Source of the DNA: Patescibacteria group bacterium
Lineage (GTDB): Bacteria; Patescibacteriota; Microgenomatia; Levybacterales; UBA12049
NCBI GenBank assembly: GCA_023484045.1
Contig: JAMDAA010000018.1
Coordinates: 4 to 64,003 of the forward strand
Reading direction: 5' to 3'
Length of the DNA: 64,000 nucleotides
The stretch's first letter is position 1, and the number at the start of each line of letters is the position of its first letter. The position numbers were made by a program, and so were the translations under genes. Shown here piece by piece: positions 19,647 to 54,606 of this stretch. Below the pieces are notes generated by a model. That model did not search any database and was not told where the DNA came from. It saw only the letters and a list, made by a program, of their open reading frames with translations.

Positions 19647-20011
19647 AATATAAGAATATCACTAATCCAAATATAAAATAAAAAATTGCTGTCATCAAAT
19701 GGCCGCAGAACGTGAGTAATGGTGAAAGTAATCGGAGCTTTTTATTTATTCAAAATATTTACTGATCTTTTAATCGCCACAAATCCGTAACCCCACAAGA
19801 AAGGCAACCATAAAGGCATTAAGCCGAATAAACTATTTCTGCTAAAAGTTTCTGCACCTGTAGATACAAATAAATATTCAAAAATTACCATTACGCAAAA
19901 ACCAAAAATAAAAAATAAAATATCTTTTGATTCAAATTTTATAATCAACGATATTATAAGACTATTCTTTTTTCCATTTTTTCCCTTCGATTCGCTTCGC
20001 TCACTCAGGGT

Positions 20012-20281
20012 TTACAACTTTTTTAATAGTGCTTTATCTCCTTTAATTAAAGCTTCTTTTTTAGATCGCGACCAACTCTTTAATTGATATTCTCTTTGCA
20101 TTGCTTCTTTTCTTGAATTATAAGTTTCTGAGTAAGCCAATTCAAAAGAGTAAAAATTCCTAATATATTTTGCGGATTTCGAATTTTTAGCTTTATGCTC
20201 TTTCAGTCTTTTCTTTAAATTATTAGTTTGTCCAATATATAAAGTGTTTGAAGAGGTTCGAAGAATATAGACGTAGAACAT
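20012..20281 (-). CDS. GIY-YIG nuclease family protein (small, homing-endonuclease-like), copy 1
   Basis: 'MFYVYILRTSSNTLYIGQTNNLKKRLKEH' GIY-(10)-YIG motif; 89 aa. Confidence 0.8.
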   Translation of the reverse strand: MFYVYILRTSSNTLYIGQTNNLKKRLKEHKAKNSKSAKYIRNFYSFELAYSETYNSRKEAMQREYQLKSWSRSKKEALIKGDKALLKKL

Positions 20282-20450
20282 GGTTCGACTACGCGCTCAC
20301 CACACTCGACTCAAGTGCTATAGCCATGAGCGAACGAAGTGAGTCGAATGGCTGCTGGGCTTGGATTCCCCGCCTGCGGTCGCCTGAGGCGACAGCCGAT
20401 GGCGGGCAGGGAACCAAAATAAACGGATCCCCGCCTTGCCAAAGCCTGAG

Positions 20451-20521
20451 CTGCGGGACATGGATTCGAACCATGATACTGGGATCCAAAGTCCCATGTC
20501 CTACCATTAGACGATCCCGCA
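20451..20521 (-). tRNA. tRNA-Gln (anticodon TTG)
   Basis: manual cloverleaf: acceptor TGCGGGA/TCCCGCA, 3-bp D stem, anticodon stem TGGGA/TCCCA with loop CTTTGGA, T arm CATGG-TTCGAAT-CCATG. Confidence 0.8.
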
Positions 20522-20676
20522 GCACAAACTTCAGCGATGGCGGGCAGGCAAAGTCCCGCCTGCGGCCTACCATTAGACGACCCAGCAATACTCCTTAATG
20601 ATACCAAATTAGGCTTCGCGCTTCAATCCGATCAACATATATTGACTTAGTTTGATAGCTGTGTTTTAATCTGAAC

Positions 20677-26054: not shown

Positions 26055-26399
26055 TTATTGGGTACCAAAAGCTGGTTGATTAACTATTATGGCTTTGAAT
26101 GTACCCTTCATTTCGTATTTAGTTCCTTTTTCTACATAACAAACATCACCGACATTTAGTGTAACTTCCTCATTATTGAATACCAAAATTAAATTTCCCT
26201 CAAGAACATAATAAATCCGATTGTAATAAGCTGTCTCTTTTTCGTAATAATCTGTGGCTTCTGTTGTGGCCAAGGAAACATCTTTGGAAATATCTTTAGT
26301 AATAAAGCTTATTGCGATTTTATTGTCGGCAATTTTTCTTATTGTTACCTCGGACTTTCTAACAACTTTAAACATGTTTATAATTTTCTCCTTCCCCAA
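26055..26399 (-). CDS. cupin domain protein
   Basis: 'YYVLEGNLILVFNNEEVTLNVGDVCYVEKGTKYEMKG' cupin motifs. Confidence 0.65.
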   Translation of the reverse strand: MGKEKIINMFKVVRKSEVTIRKIADNKIAISFITKDISKDVSLATTEATDYYEKETAYYNRIYYVLEGNLILVFNNEEVTLNVGDVCYVEKGTKYEMKGTFKAIIVNQPAFGTQ

Positions 26400-26667
26400 G
26401 GGTTCTTTTTAAAGCTTTCTTGAGATTGTCTCTTCCAAACCCGCTTTTTAGAAAAACTTCGCGAGCTTTTGCGTCTTTTTCGTTGATAAAATATTCATAA
26501 TGAACAAGCTTAAGCGGTCTTCTGTTGGCTGTGGAACTTACTTCGCCTCGAGCATGTCTCAAAAGTCGATCTTTTAAATCAGCAGTATAACCAGTGTAAA
26601 ACTTTTTGTCTTTAAGACTAATAAGATTGTACACGTAGTATTTATTATTAGAACGTCTAACGTTCAT
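26368..26667 (-). CDS. GIY-YIG nuclease family protein, copy 3
   Basis: 'YYVYNLISLKDKKFYTGYTADLKDRLLRH' GIY-YIG motif; 99 aa. Confidence 0.75.
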   Translation of the reverse strand: MNVRRSNNKYYVYNLISLKDKKFYTGYTADLKDRLLRHARGEVSSTANRRPLKLVHYEYFINEKDAKAREVFLKSGFGRDNLKKALKRTLGEGENYKHV

Positions 26668-26741
26668 TAACTTTATATAATGATTTGCCCAGTCTGACTG
26701 GGCTCCTCGTCATCCTCGGTGAAACCGAGTTTGACTCGGTG

Positions 26742-26813
26742 AGCGGTGGACCGGATTCGAACCGGCGACATCTTCCTTGGCAAGGAAGCATTCTACCACT
26801 GAATTACCACCGC
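26742..26813 (-). tRNA. tRNA-Gly (anticodon GCC)
   Basis: manual fold: acceptor GCGGTGG/CCACCGC, anticodon stem CTTCC/GGAAG with loop TTGCCAA, T arm GCCGG-TTCGAAT-CCGGT. Confidence 0.8.
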
Positions 26814-32238: not shown

Positions 32239-32354
32239 CAAACAGAATGGGTGCGGACGAGAGGACTTTCTTCGACTTCGCTCAGAATAAACTTCTCGTC
32301 CTCTCTTATCCTTCCGTTCAACAAACTCAAGCAACCCTGAGCTCGCCGAATGGG

Positions 32355-32438
32355 TGCGGACGAGAGGACTCGAACCTCCACGCTTTTTAGGGCACAGCCA
32401 CCTCAAGGCTGCGTGTATACCAGTTTCACCACGTCCGC
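32355..32438 (-). tRNA. tRNA-Leu (anticodon GAG), long variable arm
   Basis: manual fold: acceptor GCGGACG/CGTCCGC, anticodon stem CAGCC/GGCTG loop TTGAGGT, 16-nt variable arm. Confidence 0.8.
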
Positions 32439-37854: not shown

Positions 37855-37932
37855 TTGTTTTATCAGCCTCGATCTGCTAAAATTTAACTCAGAGTGAGGA
37901 GGATCGAAGATCCTGAGTAACGAAGTTGTGAT

Positions 37933-37991
37933 GGACTCTTAGCTCAGTTGGTTAGAGCGGTCGCCTTAGGCGACAGGTCGCAGGTTCGAAT
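37933..37991 (+). pseudogene. tRNA-Val-like 5' fragment (acceptor-5', D arm, aberrant anticodon arm, T stem-5' and T loop; 3' part replaced)
   Basis: identical to tRNA-Val(GAC) at 38237 over positions 1-25 and 44-60 but with anticodon arm GTCGCC-TTA-GGCGAC and no 3' acceptor strand. Confidence 0.5.
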
Positions 37992-38000
37992 AGTACATAA

Positions 38001-38246
38001 ATGTGGTACGTATATGTTTTGAAAAGTATAGTAAATTCGAGATTTTATACAGGATCAACAAATAACTTGGAAAGAAGATTAAAAGAACATAATTCAGGGC
38101 ATAGTAAATATACAAGGTTAACTAAACCTTTTGAAATTATATACCAAGAAACTTACAAAAAGAGACTTGAGGCACGGAGGAGAGAATTATTTTTAAAAAC
38201 TGGTAAGGGAAGAGAGTTATTGAAAAGTTTAATCATGGACTCTTAG
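38001..38246 (+). CDS. GIY-YIG nuclease family protein, copy 2 (embedded between tRNA-Val fragment and intact tRNA-Val)
   Basis: 'MWYVYVLKSIVNSRFYTGSTNNLERRLKEH'; stop codon TAG lies at positions 8-10 of the downstream tRNA. Confidence 0.75.
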   Translation: MWYVYVLKSIVNSRFYTGSTNNLERRLKEHNSGHSKYTRLTKPFEIIYQETYKKRLEARRRELFLKTGKGRELLKSLIMDS

Positions 38247-38310
38247 CTCAGTTGGTTAGAGCGCGTCGTTGACATCGACGAGGTCGCAGGTTCGAATCCT
38301 ACAGAGTCCA
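38237..38310 (+). tRNA. tRNA-Val (anticodon GAC)
   Basis: manual fold: GGACTCT-TA-GCTC-AGTTGGTTA-GAGC-G-CGTCG-TTGACAT-CGACG-AGGTC-GCAGG-TTCGAAT-CCTAC-AGAGTCC-A (one C-A mismatch in T stem). Confidence 0.75.
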
Positions 38311-38377
38311 CTTAGCTAAGTTTGTTAGAGCGGTCGCCTTAGGCGACAGGTCACAAGTTCGACTCTTGTCGAGCCCA
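38311..38377 (+). pseudogene. tRNA-like 3' fragment with degenerate D arm, same aberrant anticodon hairpin, distinct T arm and CGAGCCC-A 3' end
   Basis: 'GTTAGAGCGGTCGCCTTAGGCGACAGGTC' shared with 37951..37979; no matching 5' acceptor strand. Confidence 0.4.
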
Positions 38378-38534
38378 CTTGTTTTATTGCTCTATCTTAA
38401 AGCACGATCGCAAGGACACCTCGGAGTGTAGTGTAAAGAGTGAATGCAAAAATCCACGACGAAGAATGGTAGCGTCCTAAAAATAATACTATAGTCCGAT
38501 TATTTTTAATCCATTATTATCCATTTTGTCATTC

Positions 38535-54424: not shown

Positions 54425-54569
54425 TTATACCCTGAGCGAAGTCGAGGGGTAATACTGAGTGTAATCGAAGTATATGAAAAGAAGTTTGAATTTTTGGTTT
54501 TATTACTTTACTTCCCGGTAGGGGGGACGAAGTTAATGGATTAATATAATCCAAAACCAAAACTTACAG

Positions 54570-54592
54570 CCTCCCAAAAGGGAGGTTTTTTT
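54570..54592 (+). terminator. rho-independent terminator
   Basis: CCTCCC-AAAA-GGGAGG + TTTTTTT. Confidence 0.55.
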
Positions 54593-54606
54593 GTGATAAA
54601 AAGGAG

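Follow-up and report, generated by a model that had tools for sequence, protein, structure and literature searches.

SegB of the phages T4 and T6 is a multi-domain GIY-YIG enzyme with a DNA-binding region. It makes double-strand breaks, its gene is located among tRNA genes without preference for a tRNA type, and it is known for the tandem amplification of nuclease-plus-tRNA segments and for a selfish, patchy distribution (PMC13096335). The Ssn proteins are single-domain GIY-YIG enzymes of 94 aa. They recognize hairpin repeats on the flanks of the gene that encodes them, and their only substrate is single-stranded DNA, cut a few nt upstream of the hairpin (PMC11893778, Chenal et al. 2025). The UPF0213/Slx1-like proteins were taken in a 2006 survey for vertically inherited enzymes of the repair type; the fusions to tRNA-methyltransferase-like domains (TrmH-like, COG4123) noted there (Dunin-Horkawicz 2006, PMC1564403) hint at a link to tRNA. 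Interruption of tRNA genes by mobile DNA is known from the Patescibacteria in the form of group I introns, sometimes with a homing endonuclease, which are placed at the anticodon-loop position and contain a ribozyme core (PMC13011429). In the literature searched we found no description of GIY-YIG genes nested in bacterial tRNA genes.

Here we describe such a gene in a Patescibacteria group bacterium (GTDB lineage Bacteria; Patescibacteriota; Microgenomatia; Levybacterales; UBA12049; assembly GCA_023484045.1, contig JAMDAA010000018.1). The DNA analysed, a stretch of 64,000 nt comprising positions 4 to 64,003 of the forward strand, is referred to as the window, and coordinates are counted from its first letter. 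Judging by analogy, the Ssn family (SsnA with its NTS/SRM hairpin repeats) would be the closest functional counterpart of the locus.

Organization of the tRNA-Val(GAC) locus

The unit is composed, in this order, of a promoter-like box, a 5' tRNA-like piece with a hairpin (fragment 1), the nuclease ORF, the intact tRNA-Val, what is left of the 3' part of the resident tRNA-Val, again with this hairpin (fragment 3), and a T-run (Table 1). Neighboring genes encode an unknown protein of 186 aa, a camelysin-like protein and a signal-peptidase-like protein. Fragment 1 is identical to tRNA-Val(GAC) over 29 nt (ATGGACTCT...GAGCG), the identity starting 2 nt before tRNA +1 and continuing through position 27. 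At this point a 15-nt palindrome, GTCGCCTTAGGCGAC, takes the place of the 17-nt anticodon arm, and the 17 nt following the hairpin (AGGTCGCAGGTTCGAAT) are again identical to tRNA-Val(GAC). The 3' strands of both the T stem and the acceptor are missing from fragment 1. The ORF runs into the intact tRNA, its last 10 nt being the first 10 nt of the tRNA and its TAG stop codon (38244-38246) coinciding with tRNA positions 8-10. Fragment 3 has 25 nt in common with fragment 1 (GAGCG-hairpin-AGGTC) and then continues with an intact T arm (ACAAG-TTCGACT-CTTGT) and an acceptor-3' strand (CGAGCCC-A) of its own.

Table 1. Positions of the features of the tRNA-Val(GAC) locus in the window
Feature	Position	Strand	Basis or remark
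TG-extended -10-like box TGCTAAAAT, candidate promoter for the whole unit	37875..37883	+	49 nt upstream of fragment 1; proposed from sequence inspection
Fragment 1, 5' tRNA-like piece (T*5')	37933..37991	+	tRNA-Val 1-27, hairpin, variable region, T-stem 5' strand, T loop
Hairpin copy 1, GTCGCC-TTA-GGCGAC	37960..37974	.	stands where anticodon-arm positions 27-43 would be
GIY-YIG nuclease gene, 81 aa	38001..38246	+	Pfam PF01541 E=5.6e-18
Intact tRNA-Val(GAC), acceptor GGACTCT/AGAGTCC	38237..38310	+	ARAGORN; Rfam tRNA 67.3 bits
Fragment 3, 3' tRNA-like piece (T*3'), about positions 8-76 of resident tRNA-Val	38311..38377	+	Rfam partial match; comparison with L086
Hairpin copy 2, replacing the anticodon arm of fragment 3	38333-38347		
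T-rich run TTGTTTTATTG, terminator-like unit end, weak	38379..38389	+	directly 3' of fragment 3; terminator-like prediction 38357-38374 plus tail
Direct repeat, 52 nt, 92% identity	left 37938..37989, right 38311-38362	+	hairpin inside; brackets ORF and tRNA

ARAGORN called no tRNA in fragment 1 or fragment 3 when the window was scanned. Against the Rfam tRNA model fragment 1 scored 20.4 bits, under the threshold of 29 bits, and fragment 3 gave a partial match of 31.0 bits covering model positions 8-63. The parts had been described in an initial annotation made from the letters, and our placement of all of them agrees with it base for base; this includes the tRNA-Val copy with the GTCGCC-TTA-GGCGAC arm, the stop codon inside the intact tRNA, the second hairpin followed by a different T arm and acceptor-3' strand, and the statement that neither flanking piece is an intact tRNA. 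We also considered whether the pieces could be suppressor tRNAs with the anticodon TTA and rejected this, as the arm lacks 2 nt, a C would occupy position 33, the loop closes to 3 nt and ARAGORN is silent in the window.

As no space is left for a separate promoter in front of the intact tRNA-Val, ORF and tRNA presumably share a transcript. Nuclease and the sole working tRNA-Val of the locus appear to form one transcription unit with a tRNA-type promoter. A consensus promoter scan did not flag the -10-like box upstream of fragment 1, and its role as promoter is therefore putative; in most related loci TGnTAtAAT-like boxes precede the 5' tRNA-like piece by 10-25 nt.

The GIY-YIG protein

The 81-aa protein consists of one domain, with Pfam GIY-YIG (PF01541) extending over residues 1-69. 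A profile search of the PDB returned 1ywl (2.6e-12) and 1zg2 (7.8e-12), then SLX1 (2e-4 to 2e-3), and tblastn found B. subtilis yazA at 40% identity. Among 38 homologues Y5, G18, R26, H30 and E62 are invariant and Y16 is present in at least 90%. Fold and catalytic residues (Tyr, Tyr, Arg, His, Glu) are those of the GIY-YIG superfamily, and the minimal single domain in the range of ~80-110 aa, closest to EF2693, BH0048 and YazA and then to SLX1, is that of the UPF0213 or prokaryotic Slx1-like proteins. By family the protein is a UPF0213/Slx1-like single-domain nuclease with predicted activity. A separate DNA-binding domain, which would mark a Seg-like enzyme, is absent, the whole protein being one domain. 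An identical protein is annotated in one metagenome-assembled genome (MAG) of the Patescibacteria. The window contains three GIY-YIG ORFs in total (81, 89 and 99 aa), old paralogues whose mutual matches do not go beyond E about 1e-15 to 1e-4.

Recurrence of the arrangement

Each of the three small GIY-YIG genes in the window has a tRNA beside it on the same strand. The layout of the tRNA-Val locus was found twice more in the window and, beyond that, on more than 100 independent contigs. For comparison we used 77 related loci from Patescibacteria, Chloroflexota, Bacteroidota, Omnitrophota, Acidobacteriota and others, which differ in their flanks, tRNA identities and hosts. A same-strand tRNA is located ≤30 nt from the ORF in 61 of these 77 loci. 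The overlap of stop codon and tRNA is no peculiarity of the tRNA-Val locus and belongs to the family as a whole: in 26 of the 77 loci the ORF stop is made up of tRNA U8-A9-G10, with the tRNA starting exactly 10 nt before the ORF end. A second layout, in which the tRNA ends 2-3 nt before the ATG (7 of 77), would yield a leaderless mRNA after 3' processing. The tRNA-like pieces always share the strand of the ORF and are located inside the predicted transcript, and tandem arrays of tRNA-like units and ORF-plus-unit repeats occur as well (L074, L124, L154). The arrangement of a tiny GIY-YIG gene in a tRNA locus, between a working tRNA and hairpin-bearing partial copies, is widespread and apparently undescribed.

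The hairpin element

Folded as single-stranded DNA, the hairpin has 6 bp in its stem and 3 nt in its loop (-7.9 kcal/mol, z = -3.9). Allowing ≤3 mismatches it is present at three places in 64 kb, which correspond to 6 strand-wise matches because the hairpin is palindromic, versus 0.55 expected, a count that was reached by none of 100 shuffles. Within the window it is confined to two of the three GIY-YIG loci. The pattern GTCGCC-N2-5-GGCGAC substitutes the anticodon arm in partial tRNA copies, usually of the adjacent tRNA, regardless of tRNA identity, with at least eight identities represented (Val, Ile, Gly, Ala, Arg, Lys, Asp, Pro). Some hairpin-bearing copies are called suppressor, Ser or SeC tRNAs by tRNA finders. 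Other clades carry alternative GC stems (TCCGCC/GGCGGA, CCTGCC/GGCAGG, GTCCGAT/ATCGGAC). The stem is exact in 67 of 86 hairpin instances, across phyla, and non-Watson-Crick pairs, read on the sense strand, are mostly G.T (7 versus one C.A). Where two hairpins are placed around one ORF, the variable loop is usually common to both. The anticodon arm had earlier been described as aberrant; to take it for debris does not hold in view of its conservation in copies of so many tRNAs and its usual identity on both sides of the ORF; on sequence grounds the hairpin arm is a conserved element, and decay is ruled out as its origin.

Among the 77 related loci the hairpin is located upstream of the ORF in 42, at a median distance of 16 nt before the ATG, and downstream in 24. 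The repeat around the hairpin extends over a median of 9 nt to the left and 11 nt to the right, as determined from 10 loci with identical hairpins on both sides. A hairpin-centred scan of metagenomes yielded 98 instances, 88 of them with an ARAGORN tRNA at ≤700 nt, nearly always on the same strand. Of the 66 informative instances 49 have a GIY-YIG ORF at ≤500 nt; the other 17, tandem arrays among them, clearly lack the ORF. One tRNA-like copy can bear several different GC hairpins (L045, L058, L079; window 20355-20420). Protein clade and hairpin type agreed in 48 of 61 cases in a nearest-neighbour test, a figure dominated by the over-sampled GTCGCC group, and minority types mostly neighbour another type, so that no clear tracking of hairpin type by protein clade is seen in this sample.

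Breakpoints, empty site and tRNA alleles

The 5' copies start at tRNA +1, the identity reaching 0-5 nt further upstream in 25 of 29 loci, and stop at tRNA positions 24-27 in hairpin-type loci, and the 3' copies mostly finish at the tRNA 3' end. The best-defined breakpoints are landmarks of the cloverleaf, namely position +1, the base of the anticodon stem at 26/27 and the mature 3' end. The left junction of the ORF varies from about position 48 to 59, and this spread rules out a fixed insertion point in the T loop.

An empty site was found in the related locus L086, in which the homologue of the upstream gene precedes an ordinary tRNA-Val and both ORF and hairpin are absent; the insertion therefore took place at the tRNA-Val locus. 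Fragment 3 matches the 3' half of the tRNA-Val in L086 (T arm and acceptor-3' strand AGAAG-TTCGAGT-CTTCT CGAGCCCAC), the acceptor-3' strand being common to both and the T stem remaining paired through compensatory change, whereas the neighboring intact tRNA-Val does not match fragment 3. Going by this alignment, fragment 3 is the 3' remnant of the resident tRNA-Val and the intact tRNA-Val is a different allele, which the cassette probably introduced or regenerated. At the four positions at which fragments 1 and 3 differ, fragment 1 has the variant of the intact tRNA-Val in all four. Simple insertion with target duplication can be discarded for the window locus, as fragment 1 has its counterpart in the intact tRNA and not in the resident allele, so that an extra gene-conversion step is required. 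The initial annotation had explained the locus as a homing or duplication scar, left by a nuclease gene that inserted into its tRNA target and partially duplicated it. The insertion and the partial tRNA copies flanking the gene are borne out by the empty site and by the anatomy; a simple duplication of the intact tRNA is not supported, given the two alleles, and the recurrence in the window and on more than 100 contigs speaks against a single event.

Outer halves with mutually complementary acceptor strands unlike those of the inner intact tRNA were observed in six loci (L012, L015, L018, L032, L105, L173). At the Leu-Val(TAC) site the window has no ORF, whereas in L001 and L173 the site is filled. 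Filled and empty alleles of an otherwise conserved site, the patchy pattern described for Seg-like genes, are thus seen both for tRNA-Val (window versus L086) and for Leu-Val(TAC).

Discussion

The locus shares with the Ssn genes a single GIY-YIG domain of ~80-100 aa, equivalent catalytic positions (Y6, Y17 and E64 in SsnA, Y5, Y16 and E62 here) and short GC-rich hairpin repeats at one end or both ends of the gene, an IS-like arrangement of hairpin, gene and hairpin. Cutting of the Ssn type, a few nt upstream of the hairpin on each strand, would be compatible with repeat boundaries at ~9-11 nt from the hairpin. However, the published SRM consensus HGTCWY...RNCYNB is not matched by the hairpin; as a regular expression it gave 0 matches in the window, the 240 kb of related loci contained a single match, which is unrelated, and NTS-like matches in a plasmid collection adjoin unrelated genes. 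The nearest sequence relatives of the protein are UPF0213 and not demonstrably cd10448, the likeness to Ssn being judged from the published description. Furthermore, the hairpins here are embedded in sequence derived from tRNAs, and an end-to-end fusion connects the gene with a tRNA gene, whereas the Ssn paper makes no mention of tRNA (PMC11893778). SegB resembles our loci in the traits given above, namely its place among tRNA genes of any type, the tandem amplification and the selfish, patchy distribution, but it is found in phages and not on bacterial chromosomes, and neither fusion to a tRNA nor hairpin-substituted tRNA copies have been described for it (PMC13096335). The best sequence matches and the minimal GIY-YIG domain without accessory domains are those of the UPF0213 or prokaryotic Slx1-like proteins (YazA, YhbQ; 1ywl, 1zg2), for which, in contrast to the present loci, the survey reported no tRNA-gene linkage, hairpins or mobility (PMC1564403).

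Short end hairpins, events apparently taking place on folded single-stranded DNA, ORF-less derivatives and arrays are reminiscent of IS200/IS605 and REP/RAYT elements. Unlike IS200/IS605, the loci have no HUH (TnpA) transposase, the GIY-YIG gene being the only ORF between the hairpins, and they show long target duplications where IS200/IS605 makes none. To our knowledge, no GIY-YIG enzyme carries out strand transfer. Integrase islands and prophages that target tRNA genes likewise leave a partial tRNA copy at one border and preserve a working tRNA; in contrast to these, the element here measures only ~0.3-0.45 kb, either tRNA half can be duplicated, the duplications bear hairpins, and no tyrosine or serine recombinase gene was found among the neighbors of the locus. 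The group I introns of the Patescibacteria interrupt tRNA genes in the same phylum, but at the anticodon loop (PMC13011429), whereas the junctions here are at tRNA +1 and ~48-59. An intron can be dismissed at this locus, as searches with Rfam Intron_gpI were negative both for the region (E≤10) and for the window (E≤5), and as there is no room for a ribozyme, with 9 nt from fragment 1 to the ATG and an ORF that overlaps the tRNA.

We regard it as somewhat better than an even bet that the locus represents one copy of a selfish cassette of nuclease gene and tRNA, which has settled in a resident tRNA gene and uses a tRNA promoter for its transcription. Such a cassette would consist of a single-domain GIY-YIG gene and, directly attached to it, a working tRNA gene, and would be placed within or against the resident tRNA gene, with the remains of the resident or hairpin-bearing copies of the working tRNA as its flanks. 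If nuclease and working tRNA are indeed in one transcription unit, the host cannot silence one without losing the other. The hairpin, by which the partial copies would be deprived of their anticodon arm, is most likely, by analogy with the Ssn family, a binding site of the nuclease in single-stranded DNA, with a cut ~10 nt to its 5' side. The element may move by cuts on folded single-stranded tRNA-gene DNA, presumably followed by repair through copying or joining, which would explain both the breakpoints at cloverleaf landmarks and the hairpin-centred repeat of ~35-50 nt that brackets the cargo.

A one-off homing or duplication scar, with decaying pseudogenes as pieces and mutational debris in place of the anticodon arm, would agree with a relative that has the empty site and with pieces that are non-functional as tRNAs. 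We nevertheless consider it very improbable, because the same hairpin is found at the anticodon-arm position of many tRNA identities across phyla with a largely exact stem, both hairpins of a locus usually share a loop and the architecture is stereotyped, none of which random decay can yield, and because loci that differ in flanks, tRNA identities and hosts are not one recently transferred segment. Contigs that end or have N runs inside the repeats (L011, L037, L050, L072) might raise the suspicion that metagenome assemblers mis-joined repeated tRNA sequence, but with the same ordered architecture on more than 100 contigs from different projects and assemblers, some of them ≥1 Mb (L026), and with an in-frame overlap of ORF and tRNA, the chance of such an artefact is practically negligible. 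The hairpin could also be an independent miniature palindromic repeat which accumulates in dispensable tRNA pseudogenes and is unconnected to the nuclease; the 17 ORF-less instances, the different hairpins decorating one tRNA-like copy and the poor correlation of protein clade and hairpin type would fit this idea. We give it little credence, as the hairpin is restricted to GIY-YIG loci within the window, has an ORF nearby in most informative metagenome instances and keeps a fixed distance to the ATG, and as flanking hairpins are also a hallmark of the related Ssn genes (PMC11893778).

A domesticated host system, which restricts incoming hairpin-bearing single-stranded DNA in natural transformation or maintains or amplifies tRNA genes, has precedents in SsnA, a modulator of transformation in Neisseria for which such restriction has been proposed (PMC11893778), and in SegB, which drives tRNA-gene amplification in phage T6 (PMC13096335), and both the conserved catalytic residues and the tandem arrays would be in line with it. 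This seems unlikely, though, since the genes are patchy at orthologous sites, the resident tRNA genes are disabled and the amplified units are non-functional copies instead of working tRNAs. Rather unlikely, too, is a role of the tRNA-like pieces as RNA, be it as leader or trailer for processing, stability or translation of the nuclease mRNA or as a tRNA-shaped guide or handle. Their invariable position on the ORF strand inside the predicted transcript, copy boundaries that equal the mature tRNA ends and the base of the anticodon stem, the G.T excess on the sense strand and the leaderless mRNA expected from the second layout would all suit such a role. On the other hand, SsnA does not bind RNA (PMC11893778), the 5' piece, for want of an acceptor-3' strand, is no substrate for RNase P or RNase Z, the G.T excess is equally compatible with a DNA hairpin of the sense strand, and an RNA-binding domain is missing from the protein, which is only 81 aa long.

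Taking the selfish cassette one step further, the loci could represent a new type of mobile element in bacteria, acting on tRNA genes in the manner of a natural "cleave-and-rescue" drive. We think that this tentative idea has perhaps a modest chance of being correct. A minimal hairpin-recognising GIY-YIG nuclease would act on single-stranded tRNA genes folded as cloverleaves, the resident gene would be split and tagged with hairpins, and the element would install itself fused to a replacement tRNA. The host would then need the element transcript for that tRNA.

Standalone GIY-YIG proteins of the UPF0213/Slx1-like family are very common and have been without known function for two decades; they now have a concrete genomic context and a testable role. 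The newly found principle of hairpin plus nuclease, as in Ssn, would be extended to tRNA genes, and the family may yield small nucleases that are guided by DNA structure or hairpins. For annotation the loci are a hazard, as some hairpin-bearing copies are miscalled as tRNAs and the repeats break metagenome assemblies at tRNA loci. If the cassette truly replaces resident tRNA genes with its own copy, it would constitute an unrecognised parasitism of essential genes in reduced genomes such as those of the Patescibacteria.

Structure of the tRNA-Val locus and its relatives

At the tRNA-Val locus of the window we found a nuclease gene packed together with a working tRNA and with tRNA pieces that bear a hairpin, all on the same strand and in one compact block. 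The initial annotation had described fragment 1, the 5' tRNA-like piece, as an exact copy of the intact tRNA-Val(GAC) as far as the T loop, with its anticodon arm substituted, and this holds: the 15-nt palindrome GTCGCCTTAGGCGAC takes the place of the 17-nt arm. Its account of fragment 3, the 3' piece, is likewise borne out by the sequence, and the TAG of the ORF does lie inside the intact tRNA, at positions 8–10, so that the final 10 nt of the ORF double as tRNA sequence. ARAGORN calls the middle tRNA and neither fragment; Rfam tRNA model scores are 67.3 bits for the intact tRNA, 20.4 for fragment 1 and 31.0 (partial) for fragment 3. Allowing ≤3 mismatches, the hairpin occurs at three places in the 64 kb, counted as 6 strand-wise matches because it is palindromic, versus 0.55 matches expected.

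Positions of features at the three GIY-YIG loci of the window
Feature	Position	Strand	Remarks
Fragment 1	37933-37991		copy of tRNA-Val(GAC) 38237-38310; exact over 29 nt, again over 17 nt
GIY-YIG ORF, 81 aa	38001-38246		after fragment 1; Pfam E=5.6e-18
Fragment 3	38311-38377		identical hairpin and hairpin flanks, then differing T arm and acceptor-3' strand
Outer tRNA-Gln-like gene	5' part 20587-~20530; 3' part ~20419-20349	minus
Intact tRNA-Gln	20521-20451	minus	splits outer tRNA-Gln-like gene
Nested GC hairpin CCTGCCCGCCATCGGCT-GTCGCCTCAGGCGAC-CGCAGGCGGGG	20410-20367	minus	T loop of outer tRNA-Gln-like gene
Second GIY-YIG ORF, 89 aa	20281-20012	minus	downstream of tRNA-Gln
tRNA-Gly(GCC)	26813-26741	minus	two hairpins follow
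Hairpin ACCGAGTCAAACTCGGT	26740-26724	minus	after tRNA-Gly(GCC)
Hairpin GCCCAGTCAGACTGGGC	26703-26687	minus	between tRNA-Gly(GCC) and 99-aa ORF
Third GIY-YIG ORF, 99 aa	26667-26368	minus	downstream of tRNA-Gly(GCC)

The locus had been read as a single local scar, a view that no longer stands, as the theme occurs three times in the window and again among 77 usable related loci (524 relatives from a one-genome-per-species scan, 80 loci kept; sampling overall is skewed to relatives of the window protein and to one hairpin pattern). A same-strand tRNA overlaps the ORF or follows it within 30 nt in 49 of the 77 loci, and such a tRNA ends ≤30 nt before the ATG in 13, one locus having a tRNA on both sides. 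In 26 loci the end of the ORF overlaps the start of the tRNA by exactly 10 nt, the stop codon thus being U8-A9-G10 of the tRNA, and in 7 the tRNA ends 2–3 nt before the ATG. Hosts belong to several phyla, and the tRNA identities include Val, Ile, Gly, Ala, Arg, Lys, Asp, Asn, Pro, Ser, Gln, Cys and Glu. Among the homologues the C-terminal residues vary (..GT, ..GS, ..DS), being acceptor stems in translation, and a protein identical to the 81-aa product is annotated in a Patescibacteria MAG. The tRNA-nested layout is a trait of the protein family, not a local accident.

Regarding the flanks, we distinguish two layouts. [quoted passage not shown] Both flanks are present in about a dozen loci, including that of the window. 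Copies from Patescibacteria and Chloroflexota carry GTCGCC-N2-5-GGCGAC at the place of the anticodon arm, the exact stem being present in 67 of 86 instances, most frequently with the loops TGA, TAA, GC, TTA and TCA; other clades have different GC stems, some of which sit within the D, anticodon or T loop. Copy boundaries track tRNA structure: 5' copies start at tRNA +1 (upstream identity 0–5 nt in 25/29 loci) and extend, in hairpin-type loci, to position 24–27, the base of the anticodon stem, 3' copies mostly end with the tRNA, and the hairpin stands in for exactly positions 27–43 in unrelated tRNAs. The left junction of the ORF varies more, between about positions 48 and 59. Hairpins on both sides of an ORF usually have identical loops, within a repeat extending a median of 9 nt leftward and 11 nt rightward. 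At the related locus L058 a canonical Neisseria-type NTS/SRM repeat TGTCATTCCCGCGAAAGCGGGAATCCAG (238-265) lies ~230 nt upstream of an ORF of the window-protein family, which has its own TCCGCC-type hairpins within a tRNA-Ser copy, so that a single genome contains two classes of hairpin.

The picture was similar with the hairpin as starting point: metagenome contigs scanned for the exact pattern AGAGCG-hairpin-AGGT yielded 98 instances in 83 stretches. ARAGORN placed a tRNA within 700 nt of 88 of these, nearly always on the same strand, while a GIY-YIG ORF was found within 500 nt of 49, was clearly absent from 17 and lay too near the contig end to score in 32. ORF-less forms retain the geometry, with the 5' copy directly abutting the tRNA in L155 and tandem arrays in L124 and L154.

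Resident and incoming tRNA genes

Syntenic contigs were reached via homologues of the 186-aa gene upstream of the tRNA-Val locus. One of them, L086, has a plain tRNA-Val(GAC) 25 nt after the homologue (GGGCTCG ... AGAAG-TTCGAGT-CTTCT CGAGCCCAC), with neither ORF nor hairpin at the site. Fragment 3 shares the acceptor-3' strand of this tRNA-Val and differs from it in the T arm by a compensated pair (ACAAG/CTTGT), which identifies the fragment as the 3' remnant of the resident tRNA-Val gene. The intact tRNA-Val of the window is another allele (acceptor GGACTCT/AGAGTCC, T stem GCAGG/CCTAC), of which fragment 1 is the hairpin-bearing copy. The proposal that the nuclease gene entered its tRNA target and partly duplicated it is supported in that the resident gene is broken and an empty site exists, but the pieces are not simple duplicates of the intact tRNA, fragments 1 and 3 matching different alleles. 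At further loci, too, the intact tRNA lies within a different, outer tRNA that is split and bears a hairpin; the outer acceptor strands are mutually complementary in six (L012, L015, L018, L032, L105, L173), the cleanest being L173, where ORF and tRNA-Val(TAC) occupy the T loop of a tRNA-like gene of the form GGACTCT...AGAGTCC.

Other loci and repeats in the window

A profile search of the six-frame translation revealed the two further small GIY-YIG ORFs. At the tRNA-Gln locus (20012-20600) the outer tRNA-Gln-like gene has the acceptor strands TGCTGGG (20587-20581) and CCCAGCA-GCCA (20359-20349) and bears GC hairpins, GTCGCCTCAGGCGAC among them; metagenome locus L105 has its nested hairpin too, in the T loop of a remnant resembling tRNA-Val. 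The second ORF lies between inverted copies of a motif near TTCGACTCGCTTCGCTCGCTCAGGG (19982-20010, plus; 20324-20351, minus), the upstream copy starting immediately past the CCA of the outer gene. The motif, also seen after tRNA 3' ends in L001, L017, L046, L065 and L135, may be the terminal repeat of a second cassette sub-type. No obvious partial tRNA copy was found at the tRNA-Gly(GCC) locus (26368-26813); in L017 a near-identical hairpin, GCCCAGT-TAG-ACTGGGC, precedes the third ORF. At 32245-32370 (minus), an 80-nt insert between tRNA-Leu(GAG) and tRNA-Val(TAC) has on either side a perfect direct repeat of 23 nt, AGTCCTCTCGTCCGCACCCATTC, made up of the final 20 nt of tRNA-Leu(GAG) and 3 further nt. 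The insert, whose ends resemble the TTCGACTCGCTTCGCTCGCTCAGGG-like motif in inverted orientation, looks like a miniature element without an ORF whose insertion duplicated the tRNA end. At 54473-54595 (plus), the Rfam Phe leader peptide family matched below threshold (46.8 bits, gathering score 55, E=1.2e-4).

Relation to known systems and possible mechanism

A profile of 38 homologues, in which the catalytic residues are kept, matches structures of UPF0213 proteins (1ywl and 1zg2, about 1e-12), followed by eukaryotic SLX1; the top annotated plasmid match is B. subtilis yazA. SLX1 enzymes are structure-specific. A 2006 survey of the superfamily regarded the UPF0213-type group as vertically inherited and noted fusions to tRNA-methyltransferase-like domains, not linkage to tRNA genes (PMC1564403). 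The sister group Ssn, characterised in 2025, comprises single-domain enzymes of 94 aa that bind hairpin repeats beside their own gene and, acting on single-stranded DNA alone, cut it a few nt upstream of the hairpin; the authors compared the gene layout to an insertion sequence and nowhere mention tRNA, and their hairpin consensus does not fit the window-type hairpin (PMC11893778). Within the phylum, the closest published work deals with group I introns in anticodon loops (PMC13011429), and full-text literature searches gave no account of GIY-YIG genes nested within tRNA genes of bacteria, nor of tRNA copies with a hairpin substitution. The locus is akin to known hairpin-associated single-domain GIY-YIG nucleases and to tRNA-linked GIY-YIG selfish genes.

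What we say on activity, expression and movement of the cassette is inferred. By analogy with Ssn and given the structure-specificity of SLX1, the probable target of the enzyme is the hairpin in single-stranded DNA, with a cut close by. The best-defined breakpoints coincide with single-strand/duplex boundaries of the cloverleaf, and the hairpin is at the centre of the repeat; both would fit events on tRNA-gene DNA that is single-stranded and folded. Homology for copying the cassette into other tRNA genes would then come from the flanking tRNA halves. Transcription would run from the putative tRNA-type promoter TGCTAAAAT (37875-37883; similar boxes occur in relatives) to the T-run after fragment 3 and, as one unit, would co-express nuclease and tRNA. 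An RNase P cut at tRNA +1 would remove the stop codon of the ORF, which could hold nuclease levels low.

Simple decay is excluded by the conservation of both hairpin and layout, and assembly error is ruled out by recurrence across projects. Nor is the hairpin likely to be an unrelated miniature palindrome, given its tight spacing to the ORF. A domesticated role, in transformation control as in Neisseria or in amplification as with SegB (PMC13096335), is possible but fits poorly with broken resident tRNA genes and patchy sites. That the tRNA-like pieces act at the RNA level would agree with copy boundaries at mature tRNA ends and with G.T pairs outnumbering C.A pairs 7 to 1, but SsnA does not bind RNA (PMC11893778), and we consider such a role improbable.

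The elements also affect genome data. N runs or contig ends fall inside tandem hairpin-bearing tRNA-like arrays in L011, L037, L050 and L072, so that the repeats break or collapse short-read assemblies at tRNA loci. ARAGORN labels some hairpin-bearing copies tRNA-Stop(tta), tRNA-Ser(tga) or tRNA-SeC(tca) (L135, L138, L157, L089, L134, L147, L114); these calls, which read the hairpin loop as an anticodon, are false. They are likely to give Patescibacteria genomes spurious annotations of suppressor or otherwise odd tRNAs.
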